NCBI GenBank assembly: GCA_043779265.1
Contig: JAYWEM010000028.1
Span: 1-28,929, forward strand
DNA from: a bacterium
Lineage (GTDB): Bacteria; Eisenbacteria; RBG-16-71-46
Direction: 5' to 3'
Length of the DNA: 28,929 nucleotides
Part shown: positions 3,859 to 28,929 of the stretch, piece after piece
Layout of the letters: every line of letters starts with the position of its first letter
Numbering within the stretch: the first letter of the stretch is position 1
Notes under the pieces: generated by a model
The model's database searches: none
What the model was told of the DNA's origin: nothing
The model's input: only the letters and a program-made list of their open reading frames with translations
Made by a program: the position numbers and the translations under genes

Positions 3859-4030
3859 CAGGGGGTGTCCGAATAGTGTCGGCTCAGCCCAGCCGTCCTT
3901 GAGTGCGAAGTCCAGGAAGTCTCGAGTCGCAATACCCGTTCAACGCTCAGGATGCGTCGGGTATTCCCCTCGGTGTGTCAGGTTCCGGGGTATTCGCGCA
4001 AGATCAGGTGCCGCAGGTCACTGGCCCCTG
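3859..4030 (+). ncRNA. ssrS: Probable 6S RNA (ssrS-like) rod-shaped ncRNA; strand tentative
   Basis: About 170 nt intergenic segment with nested complementarity: CAGGGG(3859)/CCCCTG(4025-4030), CGGC/GCCG, CTTG..GCGAA/TTCGC..CAAG, GGAA/TTCC, AATACCCG(3931-3938)/CGGGTATT(3958-3965), ACGC/GCGT apex. The CTTGAGxGCGAA element resembles the 5' bubble of 6S RNAs. Confidence 0.55.
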
Positions 4031-4383
4031 TAGGTCACACGCGAAGTGCAGGTCTCATGCACCGTGATGGCCGCGAGATGCGGCACGACCGTGGCGAGTC
4101 GCTGCCAGATCCACACCGCGAGGTGCTCCGCGGTCGGGTTCTCGAGACCGGGGACTTCGTTGAGTACACGATGGTCCAGTTCGTTCTTGAAGATCGGATC
4201 GATGCGCTCGCGAACCTCGCCGAAGTCGAGCAGCCAGCCCATGCGGGGGTCCACGTCGCCCTCGAGCGTCACCTCGATGCGATAGGAGTGGCCGTGCATG
4301 CGGAAGCACTTGTGCTCGGCGGGCACGTGCGGCAGGCGATGTGCGGATTCGAATCGGAACTCGCGGGTCAGTTCGACGCGCAT
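4018..4383 (-). CDS. queD: 6-carboxy-5,6,7,8-tetrahydropterin synthase
   Basis: MRVELTREFRFESAHRLP..HKCFRMHGHSY..LDHRVLN..LENPTAE..VHET. True ATG at 4383 (the track ORF is over-extended). Confidence 0.95.
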   Translation of the reverse strand: MRVELTREFRFESAHRLPHVPAEHKCFRMHGHSYRIEVTLEGDVDPRMGWLLDFGEVRERIDPIFKNELDHRVLNEVPGLENPTAEHLAVWIWQRLATVVPHLAAITVHETCTSRVTYRGQ

Positions 4384-4387
4384 GGAG

Positions 4388-5092
4388 TCAGGCCTCGGGA
4401 GTGAGCGCGTAGCGCGTGGGGTCGGGAACGCCCGCCTCGCGGAATCCGTGGGCGCGCAGGCGACAGGAGTCGCAGCCACCGCAGGCGAGAGCGTCGGGCG
4501 AGGGATCGTAGCATGAGTGGGTGAGCGCGTAGTCGACGCCCAGCGACAGGCCGAGCCGGATGATTCCGGCCTTGCCGAGCGCCATGAGTGGGGTGTGCAC
4601 CTGGTAGCGGGTGCCCTCGACCCCGGCCTTGGTCGCGAGCGAGGCGAGCGACTCGAACGCCCGGATGTACTCGGGGCGACAGTCGGGGTAGCCGGAGTAG
4701 TCGATGGCATTCATGCCGGCGACGATGTCACTCGCACCGATCACCTCGGCCAGCCCGAGTGCGATGCTCAGGAACACGGTGTTGCGAGCCGGCACGTAGG
4801 TCACCGGGATCTCGGCCGCCATCGCCGACTCCTCGCGCCCCTTGGGTACCGCGAGGTCCGCGGTCAGCGCCGAACCGCCCAGCGCACGCAGGTCGACTCG
4901 CACGATGCGGTGATCCACGGCTCCGAGAGCTGCCGAGACACGTGATGCGGCGTCGAGTTCGACGGCGTGGCGCTGGCCGTAGTCGAACGCGAGCGTCGTC
5001 GAGGCGAATCCCTCCCGCCTCGCCCACGCGAGGCAGGTGGCGGAGTCGAGGCCACCCGAGAGCAGCACGACAGCAGCGCGGGGTGCGCTCAT
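4388..5092 (-). CDS. queC: 7-cyano-7-deazaguanine synthase
   Basis: SGGLDS, FDYGQRH, TYVPARN, SGYPDCR, SCY..CGGCDSC. ATG at 5092 overlaps the queE stop (ATGA). Confidence 0.96.
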
Positions 5093-5751
5093 ACGCCGCG
5101 CCTCGCGCCCCACAGCCAGACATGCAGTCGCGGCGACAGACGCACACCGTCACGCTTGCAGCGCTCGGCCAGCCAGCGGCCGCGGCTCTTGAGCTGCTCG
5201 TCGGTCAGCCCTTCGGGCATCCACGAAAGCCGATCGAGCGGCACACGGTTCAGCTGGGCGCGCTCGAGTGACTCGTCGGCATCGGCATCGTCGCTCACCA
5301 CCACCTTGAGCGTGGTGTTGGGGTCCTGGAGGAAGGCGTCGGCATGGGCCCAGGTCTCATCCGCGCGCCCGGTGGCCGATCGCAGCTTGGGCGACCAGTT
5401 GTAGTGGAGGCGGGCATCACGGATCGGCGGCGGCTCCAAGCCGCTGGTCTCGACCTCGACACGGTGCCACCTCGTGAGGGCTGCGCGCAGGAGCGAGGCG
5501 ATCCCCTCGTGCGCCAGCGGTTCGCCGCCGGTGACCACCAGCAGTCGCGCCGCACCCAGTGCTTCGAGCGAGGCGAACACGTCGTCCACATTCCGAGGCT
5601 CGCCGCCGGAGCCTTCCCACGTGTACTTGGTGTCGCACCAACTGCAGCCGACCGCGCAGCCCTGCAGGCGGAGGAAGTGGGCGGGAGTGCCCAAGGTTGA
5701 GCCCTCGCCCTGGAGCGAGTGGAAGAGCTCGGAGACGCGCACGCTGTTCAC
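5089..5751 (-). CDS. queE: 7-carboxy-7-deazaguanine synthase (radical SAM)
   Basis: [26 protein letters not shown] (CxxxCxxC), TGGEP, VETSG, SPK, SPRLH..W. GTG start at 5751 directly after the upstream stop. Confidence 0.93.
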
Positions 5752-9251: not shown

Positions 9252-9293
9252 AGAAGACAAGAAGCCCGATGACCGAGTGGTCACCGGGCTTCT
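9252..9293 (-). terminator. Rho-independent terminator after the two WGxIKxLYR genes
   Basis: Minus strand reads AGAAGCCCGGTGACC-ACTC-GGTCATCGGGCTTCT followed by TGTCTTCT; about 45 nt after the stop at 9337. Confidence 0.75.
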
Positions 9294-9336: not shown

Positions 9337-10080
9337 CTAGCGGTACAGGGCCTTGATCTTGCCCCACGTTGAAGGCGTGGTCGACACGGGACAAGCCGGA
9401 GCATCGAACTTGCCGTTCGGATGTGCCATGTAGCCGGTCGGCAGACCCGACACCGCCCACAGACCATCCATCAGGCCGACGCCGCCCTTGGCCTGGCAGA
9501 GCTGGGACGAACCCGAGCCCGACAGGACCGTGTAGTTGCCACGGAACGAACCGTTGACCGTCCCGAAGCTGCTCTTCGTGATCGTGGTGACCAGCGAGTC
9601 CACCGCGCCGGCCAGGATCACGGTGCCATCCTGGTAGGTCGAGGGGACCGTGGCATTCGGCGGGTTGCTCGGCATCGAAGTCGGCGCGGGAGCATTGCGC
9701 GGCGAGCCCTCGTACACGGCGAAGGATCCACCGGTGTAGAGCGTCGTGTACTTCGTACCGCTCGAGCCGAACGGTGCGGTCGTCGTGCCGTTCGAAACGC
9801 CCGTGATCACGACCGTGTACTCCCTGAGTGGGTCGTTCGGATTGAGCGCGCCGAACGGTGCGCACCACAACGAGATCTGACTGACCATCGTCATGGTGTT
9901 GCCGACCGTGGAATTGTACGTGGCCTGCGTGTAGCCGGGCTCATAAGCGAAACCATTCGCATCCCACTTGAACAGGATGTTGGTTCCCGTGCCCGTGACG
10001 CACTGGGCCGAAGCCGCAGGTGTCAGGACGGTGGCGGCGAGCACCATCAGCAGAGCCGCCGTTCCGAGAATCCTCTTCAT
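9337..10080 (-). CDS. Secreted Thr/Ser/Gly-rich beta protein with C-terminal STWGKIKALYR tail
   Basis: GGGAGG SD before ATG 10080; signal peptide MKRILGTAALLMVLAATVLTPAASA; paralog of 10128..10838. Confidence 0.85.
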   Translation of the reverse strand: MKRILGTAALLMVLAATVLTPAASAQCVTGTGTNILFKWDANGFAYEPGYTQATYNSTVGNTMTMVSQISLWCAPFGALNPNDPLREYTVVITGVSNGTTTAPFGSSGTKYTTLYTGGSFAVYEGSPRNAPAPTSMPSNPPNATVPSTYQDGTVILAGAVDSLVTTITKSSFGTVNGSFRGNYTVLSGSGSSQLCQAKGGVGLMDGLWAVSGLPTGYMAHPNGKFDAPACPVSTTPSTWGKIKALYR

Positions 10081-10127
10081 ATGCAACCTCCCATGGCGCC
10101 GAGACGCCTTGATGTCGGGTTCGAGGT

Positions 10128-10838
10128 CTACCGGTACAGGGTCTTGATGGAACCCCAGGACTTGGCCTTCGAGTTCGTCGCGGTCGGGATCACGAGTTCA
10201 CCGGACAGCTGATTGATGTAGCCCTGCGGCACCGTCGCGTTGGGACGACCCGCAAGACCGCTCATCACCCAACCGCCAACCTGGCTCGGCGGGATCTGGC
10301 CGATCAGCGAGCCCTCATCCAGCGTCGCCGTGCCGATGAAGTTGCCCTGGTTCGAGTCGTAGTCGTAGACCAGAACGAGCTGGTCGACGTCGGCGCCGAG
10401 AATCAGTGTGCCATCCTCGAACGTGCTGGGCGACGTGCCGTTGGCCGGGTTGATGCCGTAGACGGCTGCGGTTCCCGTGGTGCGCGAATCCTCGAACGCA
10501 CGCATGCGGGCGTTATCCGCGAAGGACACCTCGAGCACGTTTCCGAACAGCGTGCTCGTTGCGACCGTCGCGTCGTAGAGGTGGAACGTGTACTCGTTCG
10601 CCACGTTGTCGAGTCCGACCAGGATCGGGCTGAACGACGTGATGAAACCGAGTGCGTGATACTGATCCGCCACTCCGAGGAATGACGACTCCGACGGCGA
10701 GCTGGCGCGCAGGCCGCCAGGGCCGGGCGCTGCGACGTAGTCGAAGCCGGTGAAGCCGAACAGGGTCTGCGTCTGCGAATACGCAGGAGCGGCGAATGTG
10801 ACGGCCGCCAGAAGGAGTAGCAAAGCACGACGCTTCAT
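10128..10838 (-). CDS. Secreted beta protein with C-terminal KSWGSIKTLYR tail
   Basis: GGGAGGT SD before ATG 10838; signal peptide MKRRALLLLLAAVTFAAPAYS. Confidence 0.85.
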   Translation of the reverse strand: MKRRALLLLLAAVTFAAPAYSQTQTLFGFTGFDYVAAPGPGGLRASSPSESSFLGVADQYHALGFITSFSPILVGLDNVANEYTFHLYDATVATSTLFGNVLEVSFADNARMRAFEDSRTTGTAAVYGINPANGTSPSTFEDGTLILGADVDQLVLVYDYDSNQGNFIGTATLDEGSLIGQIPPSQVGGWVMSGLAGRPNATVPQGYINQLSGELVIPTATNSKAKSWGSIKTLYR

Positions 10839-18465: not shown

Positions 18466-19110
18466 GTGTCCGACCCGGAAGTCACGGCACATTCTGAGTC
18501 CTCGTCCGTAGAAGCTGGTGTGAACAGAGCCAGCGGGGTGGGCGAACTGCGGCTCGACCGCGCAACCCTCGAGGGTGTGCGCGCTCGTGAGCCCGCGGCC
18601 CTCGGAAAGCTCTTCGATGCCTACTTCGGCTCCGTCTTCGCACTCGTCCATCGCCTGCTCGGCGACCGGACGCTCGCCGAGGACGCGACATCGGAGGTCT
18701 TCTTCAAGGTGCAGCGAGCGGCCCACTCCATCGACCCGAACCGCGACCCGGCTCCCTGGCTCATGACGATCGCGACCAATGTGTGCCGCGACCTGTGGCG
18801 CTCGGGCGCCTATCGCATGCGCCAGCGCAGTCGTTCGGTCGAGGACGACCCGGTTGTCGCCAACACGTTGCGGTCCGCCACCGAGGAGCCGCCGAAGGCG
18901 CTCGAGACCGCCGAGCGGCAGTTGGCGGTGCGCGAAGCTCTGCTCGAGCTCTCGGAGTCGCACCGGGTGGCCATCCTGCTGCATGAGTACGAGGGACTGA
19001 GTCACCAGGAAGTGGCCGAACGAACGGGCATCGAACACGCGGCGGCACGCAAGCGCTACTCGCGAGCACTCTCCGCTCTGGCCGAACTGTTGAAGGCGAA
19101 AGGACTATGA
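18466..19110 (+). CDS. ECF RNA polymerase sigma-70 factor
   Basis: Region 2 AEDATSEVFFKV..WLMTIATNVCRD; region 4 YEGLSHQEVAERTGI. GTG at 18466 with GGGAG SD preferred over the track start. Confidence 0.92.
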   Translation: MSDPEVTAHSESSSVEAGVNRASGVGELRLDRATLEGVRAREPAALGKLFDAYFGSVFALVHRLLGDRTLAEDATSEVFFKVQRAAHSIDPNRDPAPWLMTIATNVCRDLWRSGAYRMRQRSRSVEDDPVVANTLRSATEEPPKALETAERQLAVREALLELSESHRVAILLHEYEGLSHQEVAERTGIEHAAARKRYSRALSALAELLKAKGL

Positions 19111-19976
19111 GCAACGCACCGGATGATCTGGACCTGAGCTCGGACGAACAGTTCGCACGCGCTGCCGTGCGTTCACTACCGCGTGCCGCCGAGGGCCCGA
19201 GCGCCGAGTTCCGCGCCGGACTCCGCGAGCGGTTCTTCGCCGGGTCGATCGAATCCACCGTCGCCGAGTTGCCCGAAGTGGAAGCGCCGGTCGCGGGGGA
19301 CGCGCGAGGACAGGTGCTGGCTGGGCCGTGGCTCCTGCGCCCGTCGGTGTGGGTGCCGTTGGCTGCCGCGGCCGCACTCGCCTTCGCGCTCGGACTCGCG
19401 AACCGTGGCCCCGCTTGGGAGGTTTCGACAGCGACGGGCGTTGGCGTCATCCGCATCGATGGCCAGGAAGTGCCGGCACAGGCGAGCGCGGTGATCAGTC
19501 GCCTCGTCGCACGTGGCGGCCGGGTCCAGCTGCCCGAGGAGGTCTCGATCGATCTCGTGGCGCCCGGTTTCATGGTGGTGCGACTGGCCGCTGGAAGCGA
19601 CGTGCGGCTGTCGGGGTCGCCCAATCGGTGGATCGCGAGGAACTCCGAGATCTCGATCGAGAGCGGGGACGTGTTCGTCGCGACGGGCCGTGAGTTCCCT
19701 GGCTCTCGCTTGGTGGTGAGCACGGATGAGGCTCGCGTGGATGTGCTCGGCACATCGTTCGCGGTGATGCGATTCGGTCACGGCACGTGCGTCTGCGTGA
19801 TGGAGGGCAGCGTCCGCGTCGGCTCGGTGCACGATCGGTCCTCGGCCGAGGTCGTCAAGGGCCAGCGACGCTTCTGCTATGCGGACCAGCCCGCTTACAC
19901 CGAGGTCATCCTCGAGAGCAGCGAGCACGAGCTGCATCAGCTGATCGAGACGAGCGGCGCGAAACTGGATCGCTGA
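19107..19976 (+). CDS. FecR-domain anti-sigma factor
   Basis: ATG overlaps the sigma stop; single TM (WVPLAAAAALAFALGL); FecR core VRLAAGS..GDVF..VSTDEARVDVLGTSFAV..VCVMEGSVRV. Confidence 0.85.
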   Translation: MSNAPDDLDLSSDEQFARAAVRSLPRAAEGPSAEFRAGLRERFFAGSIESTVAELPEVEAPVAGDARGQVLAGPWLLRPSVWVPLAAAAALAFALGLANRGPAWEVSTATGVGVIRIDGQEVPAQASAVISRLVARGGRVQLPEEVSIDLVAPGFMVVRLAAGSDVRLSGSPNRWIARNSEISIESGDVFVATGREFPGSRLVVSTDEARVDVLGTSFAVMRFGHGTCVCVMEGSVRVGSVHDRSSAEVVKGQRRFCYADQPAYTEVILESSEHELHQLIETSGAKLDR

Positions 19977-23608: not shown

Positions 23609-23749
23609 ATGAAGCGCACCTACCAGCCCAAGAACCGTCGCCGCAAGAAGGTGCACGGCTTTCGTTCGCGAATGAAGACCAACGGTGGCCGCAAGGTTCT
23701 CGCCGCGCGTCGCGCGCGTGGTCGCAAGCGTCTGACCGTCTCCTCCTGA
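23609..23749 (+). CDS. rpmH: 50S ribosomal protein L34
   Basis: Not in the ORF track. [50 protein letters not shown] upstream; sits before rnpA. Confidence 0.98.
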
Positions 23750-23867
23750 CCGAGCCTCCCGCCTCCTCCGCCCGGTGCCCGCGCGGTGCCGATTGGATGA
23801 CGCGGCCGGTCCTCGATCCACCTGCTTAGTCCGCGCCTCGGCGCATCGCCTCGCAAGGCGCACTCCC

Positions 23868-24245
23868 ATGGTCCGCCAGCATCCCGAACGTCTGGCGCCT
23901 GCTCATCGTATGACGAGCGGCCGCGACTACTCGGCGGCCCGCCAAGGGGGGCGCGCTCATCGGGGCACGTTCTGCCTCCTCATCTCCATGCCCGCTGCCG
24001 GGGAACCCACGCGAGTGGGCTTCATCGCCAGCAAGAAGGGCGTCGGGGGAGCGGTGCAGCGCAATCGGGCCAAACGTCGGCTGCGCGAGATCATCCGGCG
24101 CCGATGGCCTCGGATGCCGCACCAAGGATACCTACTCGTGTTCATCGCCTCGCGCGCCACTCTTCGCGCGCCACATCAGTTACTGGCCTCAGAGGTCGAG
24201 AGCCTGCTCGCCCTAGCCGGCGCGCTGGCTCCCGCGGTCGACTGA
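23868..24245 (+). CDS. rnpA: Ribonuclease P protein component
   Basis: RVGFIASKKGVGGAVQRNRAKRRLREI (RNR motif); synteny; ATG at 23868. Confidence 0.95.
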   Translation: MVRQHPERLAPAHRMTSGRDYSAARQGGRAHRGTFCLLISMPAAGEPTRVGFIASKKGVGGAVQRNRAKRRLREIIRRRWPRMPHQGYLLVFIASRATLRAPHQLLASEVESLLALAGALAPAVD

Positions 24246-24249
24246 CGTC

Positions 24250-24459
24250 ATGCGTCGACTCGCGATCCTCCTCATCCGCATCTACCAGCGACTGATGCCC
24301 TCGACGATGCGCGGCTCCTGCCGCCATCTCCCCACCTGTTCCGAGTATGCGTGCGAGGCGATTGCACGCCACGGCACTCTGCGCGGCTTCGTGCTCGCGC
24401 TGCGCCGACTTGGACGCTGCCACCCGTTCGGTTCTGCGGGTTACGACCCGGTGCCCTGA
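24250..24459 (+). CDS. yidD: Membrane protein insertion efficiency factor
   Basis: IRIYQR..CRHLPTCSEY..RCHPF..GYDPVP; synteny. Confidence 0.96.
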   Translation: MRRLAILLIRIYQRLMPSTMRGSCRHLPTCSEYACEAIARHGTLRGFVLALRRLGRCHPFGSAGYDPVP

Positions 24460-24460
24460 C

Positions 24461-26299
24461 ATGGATCGTCGCACACTGATCGCGATGTTCGTGATCCTGC
24501 TGCTCTTCGTCGGATTCGAGATCGGCCGCCAGCGGGAATCGGCCAACCAGCCCCCGCCTGACGCGGATTCCCTGGCGACGCTCATCGACAGTACCGGCGC
24601 ACCGCCCGCGCCAGCCTCCACCACGCCGTCGGCGATCTCACCGGCCGCAGCCGGAGCGCTGGGTTCGGCAGCGATCGAGGCGGTTGGTTCCGTGCCTGCG
24701 ATCCCGGAGCGCGAGATCGTGATCGAGACGCCGAACTATCGCGCCACGTTCAGCAACCGCGGGGCGCGTCTGGTGGAGTTCGAACTCAAGCGTTTCGCCG
24801 CCGAGCGCGGGGTGAGCGGATACGGCAAGAACCCCGGCGACCGGCCGAAGCGCGGTGAGGAAGTGCCCTCGGGCGACCGCGTTCTGCTCTCGGGAACCCC
24901 GACGTTCGCGCTCGATATGGGGTCCGGCATGAGTCGCCGCGATTTGGACCAGCTGGTCTACGCGGTCGAGGAGAGCACCGATGCCTCCGGCGCCGTGCGC
25001 CGTGTCACGTTCACTGGCCGCGACACGTCGGGCCTCGCGATCGAGCAGGTGTGGCGCGCGACGGACCACGACTACCTGCTGGCGCTCTCCGTGCGCGTGC
25101 CGAGCACGCCGGCGGCGTGGAGGCTGACCGACTACTCGCTGGTCACACGCACATGGCCGCTCCTCAACGAGTCGGATCCCGAGATGGATAAGCGCGCTCT
25201 GCGCGCGATCGGACTCGTGGGCAAGAACCTGCATCGTGACCATGCGCCGGGTCTGGTGGGCAAGGCCGAGAAGTCGCACGATGGCGTTGCGCGCTGGGCG
25301 GGAGTCCAGACGCACTATTTCTACGTGATCGTGGCCAGCCTCGGCCGCGAGGCCCGCGGCGCGGTCAGTGCGGGAGAGCGCCGCACGCTGACCGATGAGC
25401 AGATGGCCCGCATGCCCGAGGGCGCAGTGGCCGCGCAGGATGTCGCCGTCGGGACACTGGTGATGCCGCTGCCGGATGGGGCGGAAACGCACTCGTTCAG
25501 CATCTATCTCGGGCCGGGCGACTACTTCGCGCTGTCGAAGCTGTCCGAGCACCTGGGCGGTGGACTCGAGCTCCAGCGGGCAGTGGACATGGGCTGGAAC
25601 TGGATCGTCCCGGTCTCCAAGCTGCTGCTCCAGCTCCTGAACTGGCTCGACAGCCTGGTTCGCAATTTCGGCGTCGCCATCCTGCTGCTCGCCTCGGTCG
25701 TTCGACTGGCGCTGCACCCGCTCAACATGGCGAGCATGAAGTCGATGCGCGGACTGCAGAGGGTCCAGCCCGAGGTGGAGCGCATCCGCGACAAGTACAA
25801 GAACGATCAGCAGGCGATGAACACGGCCATCATGGCGCTCTACAAAGAGCACAAGGTGAATCCGGCGGGCGGCTGTGTGCCGATGCTCATGCAGATGCCG
25901 CTGTTCTTCGCGCTCTACGCCGTTCTGTTCAATGCGGTCGAGCTTCGCCAGGCTCCGTTCTGGGGATGGATCCATGACCTCTCGGCGCCCGACCTGCTGT
26001 TCCAGGCCGGCCCGCTGCCGATCCGGCTGCTGCCCATCCTGATGGCGGGTTCGGGACTCCTGTCGCAGTGGCTGACGCCGACGGATCCCAAGCAGGCGCC
26101 GATGATGTATCTGATGAATGTCGTGATGTTGGTGTTCTTCTACAATCTTCCGTCCGGTCTCGTCTTCTACTGGACGATCATGAACCTCTTCACCGCGCTG
26201 CAGCAGTGGCTGATCATGCGCGGTGATGGTGGGGTGCTGGTCGGCACCTCGCCTGCCGCTGTCCCTGTGATGGCGGGAGGCAAGCGCAAGCGCCGCTGA
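24461..26299 (+). CDS. yidC: Membrane protein insertase YidC
   Basis: MDRRTLIA TM1, FSNRGA, NFGVAI, SMKSM, NPAGGCVPMLMQMP, ELRQAPF..WIHDLSAPD, PSGLVFYW. Confidence 0.97.
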   Translation: MDRRTLIAMFVILLLFVGFEIGRQRESANQPPPDADSLATLIDSTGAPPAPASTTPSAISPAAAGALGSAAIEAVGSVPAIPEREIVIETPNYRATFSNRGARLVEFELKRFAAERGVSGYGKNPGDRPKRGEEVPSGDRVLLSGTPTFALDMGSGMSRRDLDQLVYAVEESTDASGAVRRVTFTGRDTSGLAIEQVWRATDHDYLLALSVRVPSTPAAWRLTDYSLVTRTWPLLNESDPEMDKRALRAIGLVGKNLHRDHAPGLVGKAEKSHDGVARWAGVQTHYFYVIVASLGREARGAVSAGERRTLTDEQMARMPEGAVAAQDVAVGTLVMPLPDGAETHSFSIYLGPGDYFALSKLSEHLGGGLELQRAVDMGWNWIVPVSKLLLQLLNWLDSLVRNFGVAILLLASVVRLALHPLNMASMKSMRGLQRVQPEVERIRDKYKNDQQAMNTAIMALYKEHKVNPAGGCVPMLMQMPLFFALYAVLFNAVELRQAPFWGWIHDLSAPDLLFQAGPLPIRLLPILMAGSGLLSQWLTPTDPKQAPMMYLMNVVMLVFFYNLPSGLVFYWTIMNLFTALQQWLIMRGDGGVLVGTSPAAVPVMAGGKRKRR

Positions 26300-26524
26300 G
26301 TTGGACGCTGGCGAGACCCTTCACCGTGGCGGACGGGGCCACGGCTGAAGTCGCTGAATCCGTCATCGAGTAGCAACCGTCCCCGCGCCGTTGATGCGCG
26401 CCGGCGGCTCGAAGCGCCCCGTGGGTGCGTCGAGCGCTGCGCAGCACCGAAGCGCGAACGGATCACCATCAACGTCTGCGCGGCGCGCGTGAGCGCGCGC
26501 TGACGCGGCGACAAGAGGCATCAC

Positions 26525-28054
26525 ATGGCAAAATCGGGATCGGTTTTCGAAGGCAAGACATTCGAGGAGGCGGTTCAGCGCGGGCTCGATGATCTGCGGA
26601 TGTCGCGGGCCGAGGTCGTGATCACGCTGATCGAAGAGGGCAAGGGCGGTTTCCTCGGATTCGGCTCCAAGCCGTTCCGGGTCAGCGTGCTCCGTCGTCC
26701 GGGCGGAGCGATCCGCGAACCCGAGCAGCGTGAGGAGCGACGCGTGAAGCCGACGCGTGGCGGGGATCGCGATCGTGGTGGCCGCAGCAGTGGTCGTGGC
26801 CCGCGCGAGGAGCGCAAGGAGTCCGCCGGCCGCGATCGCGGCGAGCGTGGCGGCCGTCGCGACAAGCGCGATGACCGCGGTGGCGAGCGCCCGGACAAGC
26901 CGCAGGACGAGCCGGTCGAGACCGCTGCGAGTGGCGAGCGTTCGGAGCGTGGAGAGCGCGGAGAGCGTTCGGAGCGTGGCGAGCGTTCGAGTCGTCGTCG
27001 TGACGGTCGCGAGGGTCGTGAGCCGCGTGAGGAGCGTCGCCCGCGCCCTGCCGCCGAGGTTGCACCTGCCGACGCTCCGCCGCCCGCGGTGGCAGTGCCT
27101 GCACGCACGCCGGTCGCCGCTTCAGCCGATGAAGACGGGGATGATGATGCGAGCCGTCGCCGCCGTCGTCGTGGTCGCCGTGGTGGTCGTGGTCGTCGCC
27201 GTGGCGAGCGTCCGGAGGGTTCGTCGGCTGCTGCCGAGCTGAACGGTTCGCAGACGCATGAGACGGAGGAAGATGACTTCGAGGACGCGGTCGCGGTGCC
27301 AGTGGTTGCGGTCGCCGCCGTCCAGACGTCCCCTGCGCCTGCGGTCGTGCCGCCGTCGTCGCCGGAGCCGGTGATGACCCGCGCGTCCGCCGAGGAGTCG
27401 GACCGCGAGCCGGTCGGTGCCGCATCGAGCGCTTCAGGCTCGGAGTTCGGCGATCGTCCGGATCGTGGCAGTCGTGGCCGCGGCGGTCGTGGTGAGCGCG
27501 GCGATCGTGGCGGGCGCCGGGACCGGCCCGAGCGTACCGCGAGCTACTCGACGCCCGAGCTGACGGCTGTCGAGTTGGAGACACAGGCCAAGCAGCTGAC
27601 CGACGACCTGCTGCGCGCCATGGGCTTCGAGCCCACGGTCAGCGCGAAGGCGGACGGGACGCGTGTCGAGGTGACGGTCGAGGTGACCGAGGACGATGAG
27701 CTCCTGACCGGTCATCGCGGCGAGGTGCGGCAGGCGCTCCAGCAGCTGCTCAATCGCTACGTGAATCGCGGCGAGGGTAATCGCTACCACTTGCAGCTCG
27801 AGGTCAACGACTTCTGGCAGCGTCGCGAGGACGAGCTGACCGAGCTCGCCCGCTCGTTCGCCGCGGAGGCGCTCGAGAAGCAGGTCGAGGTCGTCACCGA
27901 CTACCTCAACTCCCAGGAGCGACGCATCGTCCATGTGACGCTCAAGGAGGACGCTCGCGTGCGCACGTTCGCGCTGGGGACGGGCATGATCAAACGAGTG
28001 GCCATCGCCCCGGCGAGTTTCCCTGAACGTTCGGGAGACGAGCACGAGGACTGA
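26525..28054 (+). CDS. jag: Jag/KhpB (EloR) RNA-binding protein: Jag_N, long disordered linker, KH, R3H
   Basis: [23 protein letters not shown] (Jag_N), [13 protein letters not shown] (KH), [10 protein letters not shown] (R3H); located between yidC and mnmE. Confidence 0.9.
26936..26989 (+). repeat. Six tandem 9-bp units GAGCG(T/C)NNN encoding ERS/ERG
   Basis: gagcgttcg gagcgtgga gagcgcgga gagcgttcg gagcgtggc gagcgttcg. Confidence 0.8.
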
Positions 28055-28080
28055 TCCGCGAGCCAACATCGCCTCTCAGT

Positions 28081-28118
28081 CGCCGGGCTCGCCTCCAACG
28101 AGCCCGGCGCGCTTCTTT
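28081..28118 (+). terminator. Terminator-like hairpin between jag and mnmE
   Basis: CGCCGGGCTCG-cctccaa-CGAGCCCGGCG perfect 11-bp stem followed by CGCTTCTTT. Confidence 0.65.
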
Positions 28119-28128
28119 CGGAGCCGTC

Positions 28129-28929
28129 ATGCCACTGCCTTCACTCGATGACACGATCGCCGCCATCGCGACCGCCCCGGGCGCCGCGGGGCTGGCCGTC
28201 GTGCGCGTCAGTGGGGCCGAGGCGCTCGCCTTCGCCGATCGAGTGTTCGAGGGTGCTCCGCTCGTTTCGGCGCTGGGCCATACGCTGCACCACGGCTGGG
28301 CGAAATGGCCGGCGCCCGGTGCCGAGGGGTTGAGACTCGACGAAGTGGTGGCGGCTGTGTTCCGAGCCCCTCGCAGCTACACACGAGAGGACGTCGTCGA
28401 GTTCTCCTGCCATGGCGGTTCCGTGCCGGCGCGCCGCGTGCTCGATGCGCTGCTCACTGCGGGCGCTCGCCTGGCGGGACCGGGCGAGTTCACGCTGCGG
28501 GCTTTCTTGCACGGGCGCCTCGATCTGGCCCAGGCCGAGGCGGTGGCCGATGTGATCCACGCCGAGACCGAAGCCGCACACGAGCTGGCGCTCGGGCAGC
28601 TCGCCGGTGCACTGTCGCGACGCCTCGCGGCACTCGCCGACCGCACGACCGATGCGCTCGCCGAGGTCGAAGCGCGCGTCGATTTCGCCGAGGATGTGGG
28701 CGGCATCGAAGTGCCGCCGCACGTGGTCGAGCTCATCGAAGCAGTGCACGGGGAGCTGGCGGAGATGCTCGCGAGCGCGGCGTGGGGACGCGCGGTGCGC
28801 GACGGCGTGCGCGTGCCGCTGGTGGGCCGGCCCAACGTGGGGAAGTCGTCGCTGTTCAACGCTCTGATCGGCGAGGAACGGGCGATCGTCACCGCACTCC
28901 CCGGCACCACCCGCGATCGCGTGACCGAA
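28129..28929 (+). CDS. mnmE: tRNA modification GTPase MnmE, N-terminal part; runs off the window edge
   Basis: [81 protein letters not shown]. Confidence 0.97.

Follow-up and report, generated by a model that had tools for sequence, protein, structure and literature searches.

The stretch of DNA analyzed here (the window, 28,929 nucleotides of a genome from the phylum Eisenbacteria) carries two co-oriented genes on the reverse strand that are separated by 47 bp and encode small secreted proteins. Protein A (9337..10080, 247 aa) comprises a Sec signal at about residues 1–25, a small beta-barrel passenger at residues 34–231, a short linker, and a C-terminal tail, and protein B (10128..10838, 236 aa) is a paralog with the same architecture. 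The tail of protein A is encoded at 9337..9390 on the reverse strand and reads P-V-S-T, then T-W-G-K-I-K-A-L-Y-R-stop, with an upstream triplet in register seven residues before the tryptophan (W-7). The tail of protein B (10128..10187, reverse strand) reads P-T-A-T, then S-W-G-S-I-K-T-L-Y-R-stop, and its triplet lies two residues farther from the Trp than usual. A weak terminator-like hairpin with a 15-pair stem is present at 9260..9293 (reverse strand), downstream of the two-gene unit; the hairpin search yielded 2 sites against 1.3 ± 0.9 in shuffled sequences. Elsewhere in the window, inspection by eye shows queD-, queC-, and queE-like genes in series (4018-5751), an ECF sigma factor gene followed by a FecR-like anti-sigma gene (18538-19976), and an rpmH-, rnpA-, yidC-, jag-, mnmE-like cluster that is typical of the vicinity of a replication origin (23609-28929).

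The two open reading frames exist as the sequence-only reading had described them, with the quoted segments and tails in place, and the homologous core and the Sec signals that it assigned to both proteins are confirmed. BLASTP aligns proteins A and B with 41/111 identical residues (37%, E 9e-15), and with 34.8% identity over 89 aa (E 1e-6) when the first and last 20 residues are removed. Both N-termini are basic-hydrophobic and end in AxA/AxS-Gln, as judged by eye and a hydropathy heuristic. Neither protein has a Pfam or NCBIfam match at E <= 1, and the named homologs of the window proteins are Candidatus Eisenbacteria proteins. The tail is kept in 103 of the 107 homologs of protein A. On an ungapped tail HMM that includes its own row, the tail of protein A obtains 40.9 bits, the top score of the genome, and that of protein B obtains 25.2 bits. 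A tail shared by two paralogs proves nothing alone, and the evidence for a tag is its genome-wide spread.

A search for the C-terminal pattern, as proposed from the two tails, finds it genome-wide and far above chance. The motif [ST]WGx[IVL][KR]xx[YF] occurs in 30 of 2,867 called proteins, always at the C-terminus and never internally, and 100 shuffled proteomes contain a mean of 0.3 matches anywhere and 0.0 at the C-terminus. The genes were called with a codon-model caller built for the analysis, and some starts are uncertain. Among 43,873 six-frame open frames, the strict motif ends 29 and is internal in none. The tail is about 18 residues long and labels about 1% of the proteome. The 30 passengers, which include an atypical C160 protein, fall into 23 BLAST clusters, so the tail is found on unrelated domains and not on one paralog family. 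Passenger domains in the genome include CHRD, lamin tail, right-handed beta-helix, cupredoxin, and NHL, and among 115 tail proteins from several phyla, choice-of-anchor V (three above cut-off), DNRLRE (two), and ScyD/ScyE (one) are recognized, while most are without a match. The expectation that a signal peptide always accompanies the tail is largely borne out: a heuristic scores 25 of the 30 proteins as positive, and the other five comprise edge fragments, proteins with doubtful starts, and one that the heuristic missed. The signal-peptide-like background is 452/2,867 proteins, and 72 of 86 tail proteins from other genomes are signal-peptide-like by the same kind of heuristic. Contig C63 carries four tandem tail genes. 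Degenerate tails occur at C79:16712-17449, C106:15803-16225, and C71:24760-24831; one has Trp replaced by Gly, one ends in IRAR, and one lies in a 27-codon frame, which suggests a frameshifted or broken gene.

The terminal part of the tail was recognized correctly at the outset, whereas its extent was underestimated, as the motif is longer and also takes in a triplet that lies seven residues ahead of the Trp. The pattern [TVLS][PSAGD][VTA], which is derived from the same 155 tails on which it is counted, is found exactly at W-7 in 112 of them, and no other offset has it in more than 20. Left out of the 155-tail set are the atypical C160 protein and two matches, L089 and L130, that arose by chance or stand out of context. 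Of 118 linkers ahead of the T9SS type A CTD, 48 contain a similar triplet, compared with 11% of control windows. The cleavage consensus of PorU is given as PT/GI in the available portion of PMC11969387, and the W-7 triplet is comparable to it. Pro stands at +1, the would-be P1', in 77/155 tails versus 4/48 CTD linkers, and its frequency at a position where PorU prefers small residues speaks against ordinary PorU cleavage. Of 102 tail proteins, 67 have a cysteine within the few residues that precede the triplet (a count that stands without a background rate), and this cysteine perhaps closes the passenger by a disulfide.

The AlphaFold2 model of protein A has a mean pLDDT of 88.7 (104-row alignment), with the core at residues 34–231 mostly above 90 and the linker and tail at 61–67. 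A helix is predicted at residues 238–246 of the tail (pLDDT ~67), beyond the core, and by residue range the modelled tail is outside the predicted core and does not appear to pack into it. The early description of the tail as helical and not transmembrane agrees with this helix and with the hydropathy of the tails, as none of the 155 has a 17-residue window above KD 1.6 and the highest such window is 1.45. The mean hydrophobic moment is modest (0.42 at 100 degrees, under the 0.52 at 170 degrees), and each of the 30 tails of the genome has a net charge between +1 and +4. In a wide VIA search, the core fold resembles allene-oxide-cyclase, dirigent, and DUF3224 barrels with Z ~8; this match is only middling, and therefore no function is drawn from the passenger fold. 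Foldseek of a window protein against the PDB gives no match at E <= 0.001.

A positively charged, predicted helix of this kind could be a docking or anchoring peptide that is never cut, and that either holds non-covalently to an envelope partner such as a surface scaffold, an S-layer, or a large T9SS cargo, or enters LPS or the membrane as a cationic aromatic helix. The frequent Pro at the would-be P1', the passengers, which are typical anchored-surface domains, and a lipoprotein-type signal, seen on at least one tail protein outside this genome, are also in line with anchoring. However, W, G, and K hardly vary across phyla, which suggests that a protein reads them stereospecifically and speaks against bulk lipid binding, and the modest hydrophobic moment at 100 degrees also counts against this reading. 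Anchoring also leaves unexplained both the fixed-register triplet, which is common to CTD linkers, and the crossing of the outer membrane by a folded periplasmic protein. A docking or anchoring peptide is considered unlikely, though it is the foremost of the alternatives to a sorting signal of T9SS.

The tail can be related to T9SS through passengers that end either in the tail or in the type A CTD. The genome contains 116 FlgD_ig matches and, by a local HMM, 162 CTD proteins; the type A CTD (TIGR04183/PF18962) is here mostly scored as FlgD_ig PF13860. None of the 162 CTD proteins also has a tail, and a tail followed by a CTD downstream is found in none of five genomes. An arrangement in which Poribacteria tails stand directly ahead of a CTD is not supported, as the three matches in five genomes each have a stop after the tail. 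Tail proteins have a median length of 239 aa versus 629 for CTD proteins, and the signal-bearing passengers have medians of 225 versus 604 (p 1e-8). Three tail proteins of the genome have their last domain in common with CTD proteins, and in two such pairs the homology stops 0–1 residues before the tail, where the CTD linker starts; overall, only 4 of 154 tail passengers match a CTD protein of the genome. For the window's own domain, 112 of the best 150 library representatives end in the tail and 5 in a type A CTD, and the remaining 33 comprise fragments, variant tails, and other cases. The five CTD-ending relatives are all multidomain (443–2,627 aa), and one 480-aa multidomain relative carries the tail. 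By these sequence comparisons, the tail takes the place of the T9SS type A CTD on domains that are homologous, and the window's own domain is one of them.

Related folds carry another surface-sorting signal elsewhere. In predicted models, both window folds match clusters from Pseudomonadota that bear PEP-CTERM (TM 0.60 and 0.62), and the ESM Atlas match of protein B, at TM 0.62, is to a cluster of which 71% is PEP-CTERM. A single-passenger homolog search for PEP-CTERM forms returned 11 close relatives only, all with the tail. The ligands of tail-specific proteases and of PDZ domains need a free C-terminus, and the tail, which is never internal, may likewise need one. On this ground, it could be a tag with a role inside the periplasm, be it in retention, chaperone binding, or degradation, through Prc/DegP-type C-terminal recognition, with its proteins not exposed at the surface. 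That such passengers elsewhere carry surface-sorting signals, and that the tail sits exactly where homologs have a T9SS CTD, makes a purely periplasmic role very improbable.

The occurrence of the tail in uncultured Eisenbacteria- and Latescibacterota-like bacteria, as put forward in the sequence-only reading, is supported by a GTDB scan and by a sample of the phylum. The scan matches at least 126 stretches, which by title are mostly Eisenbacteria, Krumholzibacteriota, Latescibacterota, or unnamed; three Poribacteria titles and one Zixiibacteriota title are among the matches listed, and no Bacteroidota title is among the 126 listed. When the window's phylum is sampled evenly, the pattern is present in 119 of 121 genomes with up to 84 per genome, against at most 1 in the reversed control, and one family of the phylum retains 0–5 tails only. 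Three Poribacteria genomes show 52–83 matches to a looser pattern versus 3–10 in the control, repeat counting included; their variant is L[PA]V[ED]PxxKLxTTW[GA]x[ILV]K, in which Tyr-Arg is not fixed. Across 41 genomes of the Zixibacteria phylum, tail counts are at the control level. One secreted protein of 138–151 aa, encoded after a rex-like gene, has a near-identical tail in genomes of this phylum; it is found in seven genomes among the matches listed, its open reading frame was read in four (L250, L254, L255, and L256), and it is the only recurring tail among the matches listed for these genomes. The phylum of an Elusimicrobia-titled record has no excess in 41 genomes (14 matches versus 27 in the control). 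W, G, and K are near-invariant across phyla, and the core common to all variants, as read from their sequences, is [TS]-W-[GA]-x-[ILV]-K near a basic end. A word-limited tail-profile search of a large protein database gave 52 matches among 7,998 scored and contributed little more.

T9SS is canonical in Bacteroidota, and several of its components are also encoded in the genome of the window. SprA matches TIGR04189 with 481.9 bits (cut-off 200), PorU matches NF033707 with 456.9 bits (cut-off 420), and the adjoining PorV scores above the PorV/PorQ family cut-off (NF033709) and below the PorV equivalog cut-off. The genome has 12 PorV-like matches, most of which adjoin CTD cargo while two are orphan. 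The PorU-PorV-M6-like operon lies at C127:6164-16475 (L033), where two genes without a Pfam or NCBIfam match follow the M6-like gene. The M6-like protein (NF052323-like, below cut-off) adjoins PorV in 23/30 and PorU in 25/30 PorV loci. The contig-edge fragments C63:1-2327 and C131:11-2041 share overlapping sequence and are apparently parts of one more C25 peptidase gene. GldM/PorM (PF12081) is found in 0 of 33 genomes, this genome included, in a search run without a positive control genome, and the T9SS here is possibly motor-less.

Profiling for a co-occurring translocon or protease, as had been suggested, shows that SprA, PorV, and PorU are encoded in tail-rich genomes. Among 50 scan-picked genomes, a set chosen by the tail itself and from which the profile was built, 41 are tail-rich; SprA is present in 39 of these, and the other two have PorV. 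Four tail-poor scan-picked genomes without SprA have 0–1 tails. In the even sample of the window's phylum, SprA is found in 115/121 genomes, and the six that have tails but no SprA match are fragmented assemblies of 88–94% completeness. As kin are not independent and nearly all genomes of these phyla have SprA, the co-occurrence is a matter of consistency and not proof. Zixibacteria have PorV-family genes with tails almost absent. The earlier statement that the tail has no assigned machinery can be narrowed, as the tail and the T9SS CTD replace each other and the tail is found in genomes with SprA, PorV, and PorU.

If the co-occurrence with SprA only reflected shared ancestry, the tail might be read by a dedicated machine outside T9SS, such as a protease, a transpeptidase, or a small translocon of its own. 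The tail has no sequence or fold likeness to a folded CTD, the matches listed contain no Bacteroidota title, and the same passengers take PEP-CTERM in Pseudomonadota, so that the swap with the CTD would show only that both are C-terminal tags. On the other hand, no recurring unknown gene stands out beside tail genes in flanks of 1.5–10 kb, even in genomes with 1–5 tails. In some Zixibacteria, a perfect tail is retained by apparently just one protein, that of 138–151 aa, which fits a general-purpose reader better than machinery maintained for a lone cargo. A dedicated machine is accordingly regarded as quite improbable.

Within T9SS, a candidate reader is one of the two orphan barrels, a PorV2-like protein at C21:549-1664 (L293) that scores 145.9 bits on NF052325 (cut-off 325). 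Its ortholog, apparently single-copy, is found in 35 of 40 genomes of Eisenbacteria, Krumholzibacteria-like bacteria, Poribacteria, and Zixibacteria, and because it is also present in the tail-poor Zixibacteria, its profile does not single the barrel out. Its neighborhoods at 21 loci contain no tail gene, and a C25 peptidase is present in a minority. The neighborhoods of SprA, also at 21 loci, contain no candidate reader and by eye consist of housekeeping lptF/G-, rimP-, nusA-, and infB-like genes. The second orphan barrel, on contig C56, was set aside as a reader since it has no clear ortholog pattern.

On balance, by analogy with orphan type B cargoes of T9SS, the tail, a portable tag on small Sec-exported proteins, is probably a peptide-sized T9SS signal read by a PorV-family shuttle. 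For the tail proteins, we infer binding, export, and cleavage. After Sec export, the passenger would fold in the periplasm, and the W-G-x-[ILV]-K helix would bind a shuttle at the SprA translocon in place of a folded CTD of 70–90 residues. The best candidate shuttle would be the orphan single-copy PorV2-like barrel, or else the PorV beside PorU, and the cargo would reach the cell surface. Less certainly, a C25 sortase may cut at the W-7 triplet and anchor or release the passenger. Among the points that bear against the T9SS signal, known T9SS signals are folded while the tail has about 18 residues and is predicted helical, and no PorM that could energize export was found in the 33 genomes. A fuller arrangement is possible but doubtful, in which, across several uncultured phyla, a motor-less T9SS of SprA, PorV-family barrels, and PorU handles two cargo size classes, with large cargo exported by a folded CTD and small cargo by an unfolded 18-residue peptide through the PorV2-like barrel. 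If this two-signal arrangement were true, the tail would become the first T9SS signal in the form of a linear peptide, and PorV2 would gain a function. A linear 18-mer would also redefine the minimal T9SS signal and give a small tag for tests of shuttle specificity or for surface display.

Whatever the reader, the motif marks its carriers as probable surface or secreted proteins. They are now annotated as hypothetical or miscalled PEP-CTERM, and a simple HMM would be enough to label thousands of them across Eisenbacteria, Krumholzibacteria, Latescibacteria, and Poribacteria. A search of the literature on the taxa, the machinery, and the literal motif, with subscription journals thinly covered, found no paper describing the tail. 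As first proposed, we infer a sorting, secretion, or anchoring tag for surface proteins, given a tail that is spread over more than one family, lies outside the predicted core, and matches no known model. The verdict is that the tag is real, widespread, and an undescribed sorting tag.

Its nearest known counterparts can be compared in turn. PEP-CTERM/exosortase (PF07589, PF09721): Like the tail, PEP-CTERM is a short C-terminal tag on small exported proteins with overlapping passengers and a Pro-rich motif before the end. In contrast, the tail lacks a TM helix (0/155) and the VPEP motif. Only one clear PEP-CTERM protein is present in the genome, and the UniRef name "PEP-CTERM sorting domain-containing" is attached to the tail-ending P0056, while the name of P0128, also tail-ending, begins alike. 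An exosortase as the reader was ruled out by the absence of TM segments in the tails and by the EPS-locus context of the one exosortase of the genome.

LPXTG/sortase and GlyGly-CTERM/rhombosortase: Both share with the tail a short motif near the C-terminus and basic terminal residues. Both need a TM segment, which the tail lacks.

T9SS type A CTD: The tail resembles this signal in its C-terminal position on Sec-exported proteins, its portability between unrelated domains, its basic end, its PT/GI-like linker triplet, its presence in genomes with SprA, PorV, and PorU, and its occurrence on homologs of the same passengers. The type A CTD is a beta-sandwich of 43–90 aa, whereas the tail has about 18 aa of predicted coil and helix. 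Moreover, the tail lacks the GxY/terminal strand motif and motifs D and E, and differs in its invariant W-G-x-[ILV]-K, its fixed triplet spacing, its common Pro at +1, and its small single-domain carriers. Its G-x-[IV]-[KR]-T-L is only a loose echo of CTD motif B. The type A CTD models TIGR04183, PF18962, and PF13860 match neither protein A nor protein B nor any of 136 tails, and no Pfam, NCBIfam, or PDB model is common to these aligned tails. In the portion of PMC11969387 available, the shortest described CTDs are those of Prevotella intermedia, with 43–55 aa and three strands. The known T9SS signals are folded beta-sandwiches for which an intact fold is proposed as required (PMC11285876, in its accessible part).

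T9SS type B CTD and PorP/SprF: The type B CTD is a second signal class beside type A, as the tail would be, and is a model for the proposed reader, since orphan type B cargoes of F. johnsoniae share one dedicated shuttle (PMC12618676, in its accessible part). It is a folded domain in Bacteroidota with PorP, whereas the barrels here belong to the PorV/PorQ family (NF033709). By its defining features, the tail is outside the type A CTD, PEP-CTERM, LPXTG, and GlyGly-CTERM families, and in its likely action it resembles a C-terminal sorting signal, with those of T9SS as the nearest.
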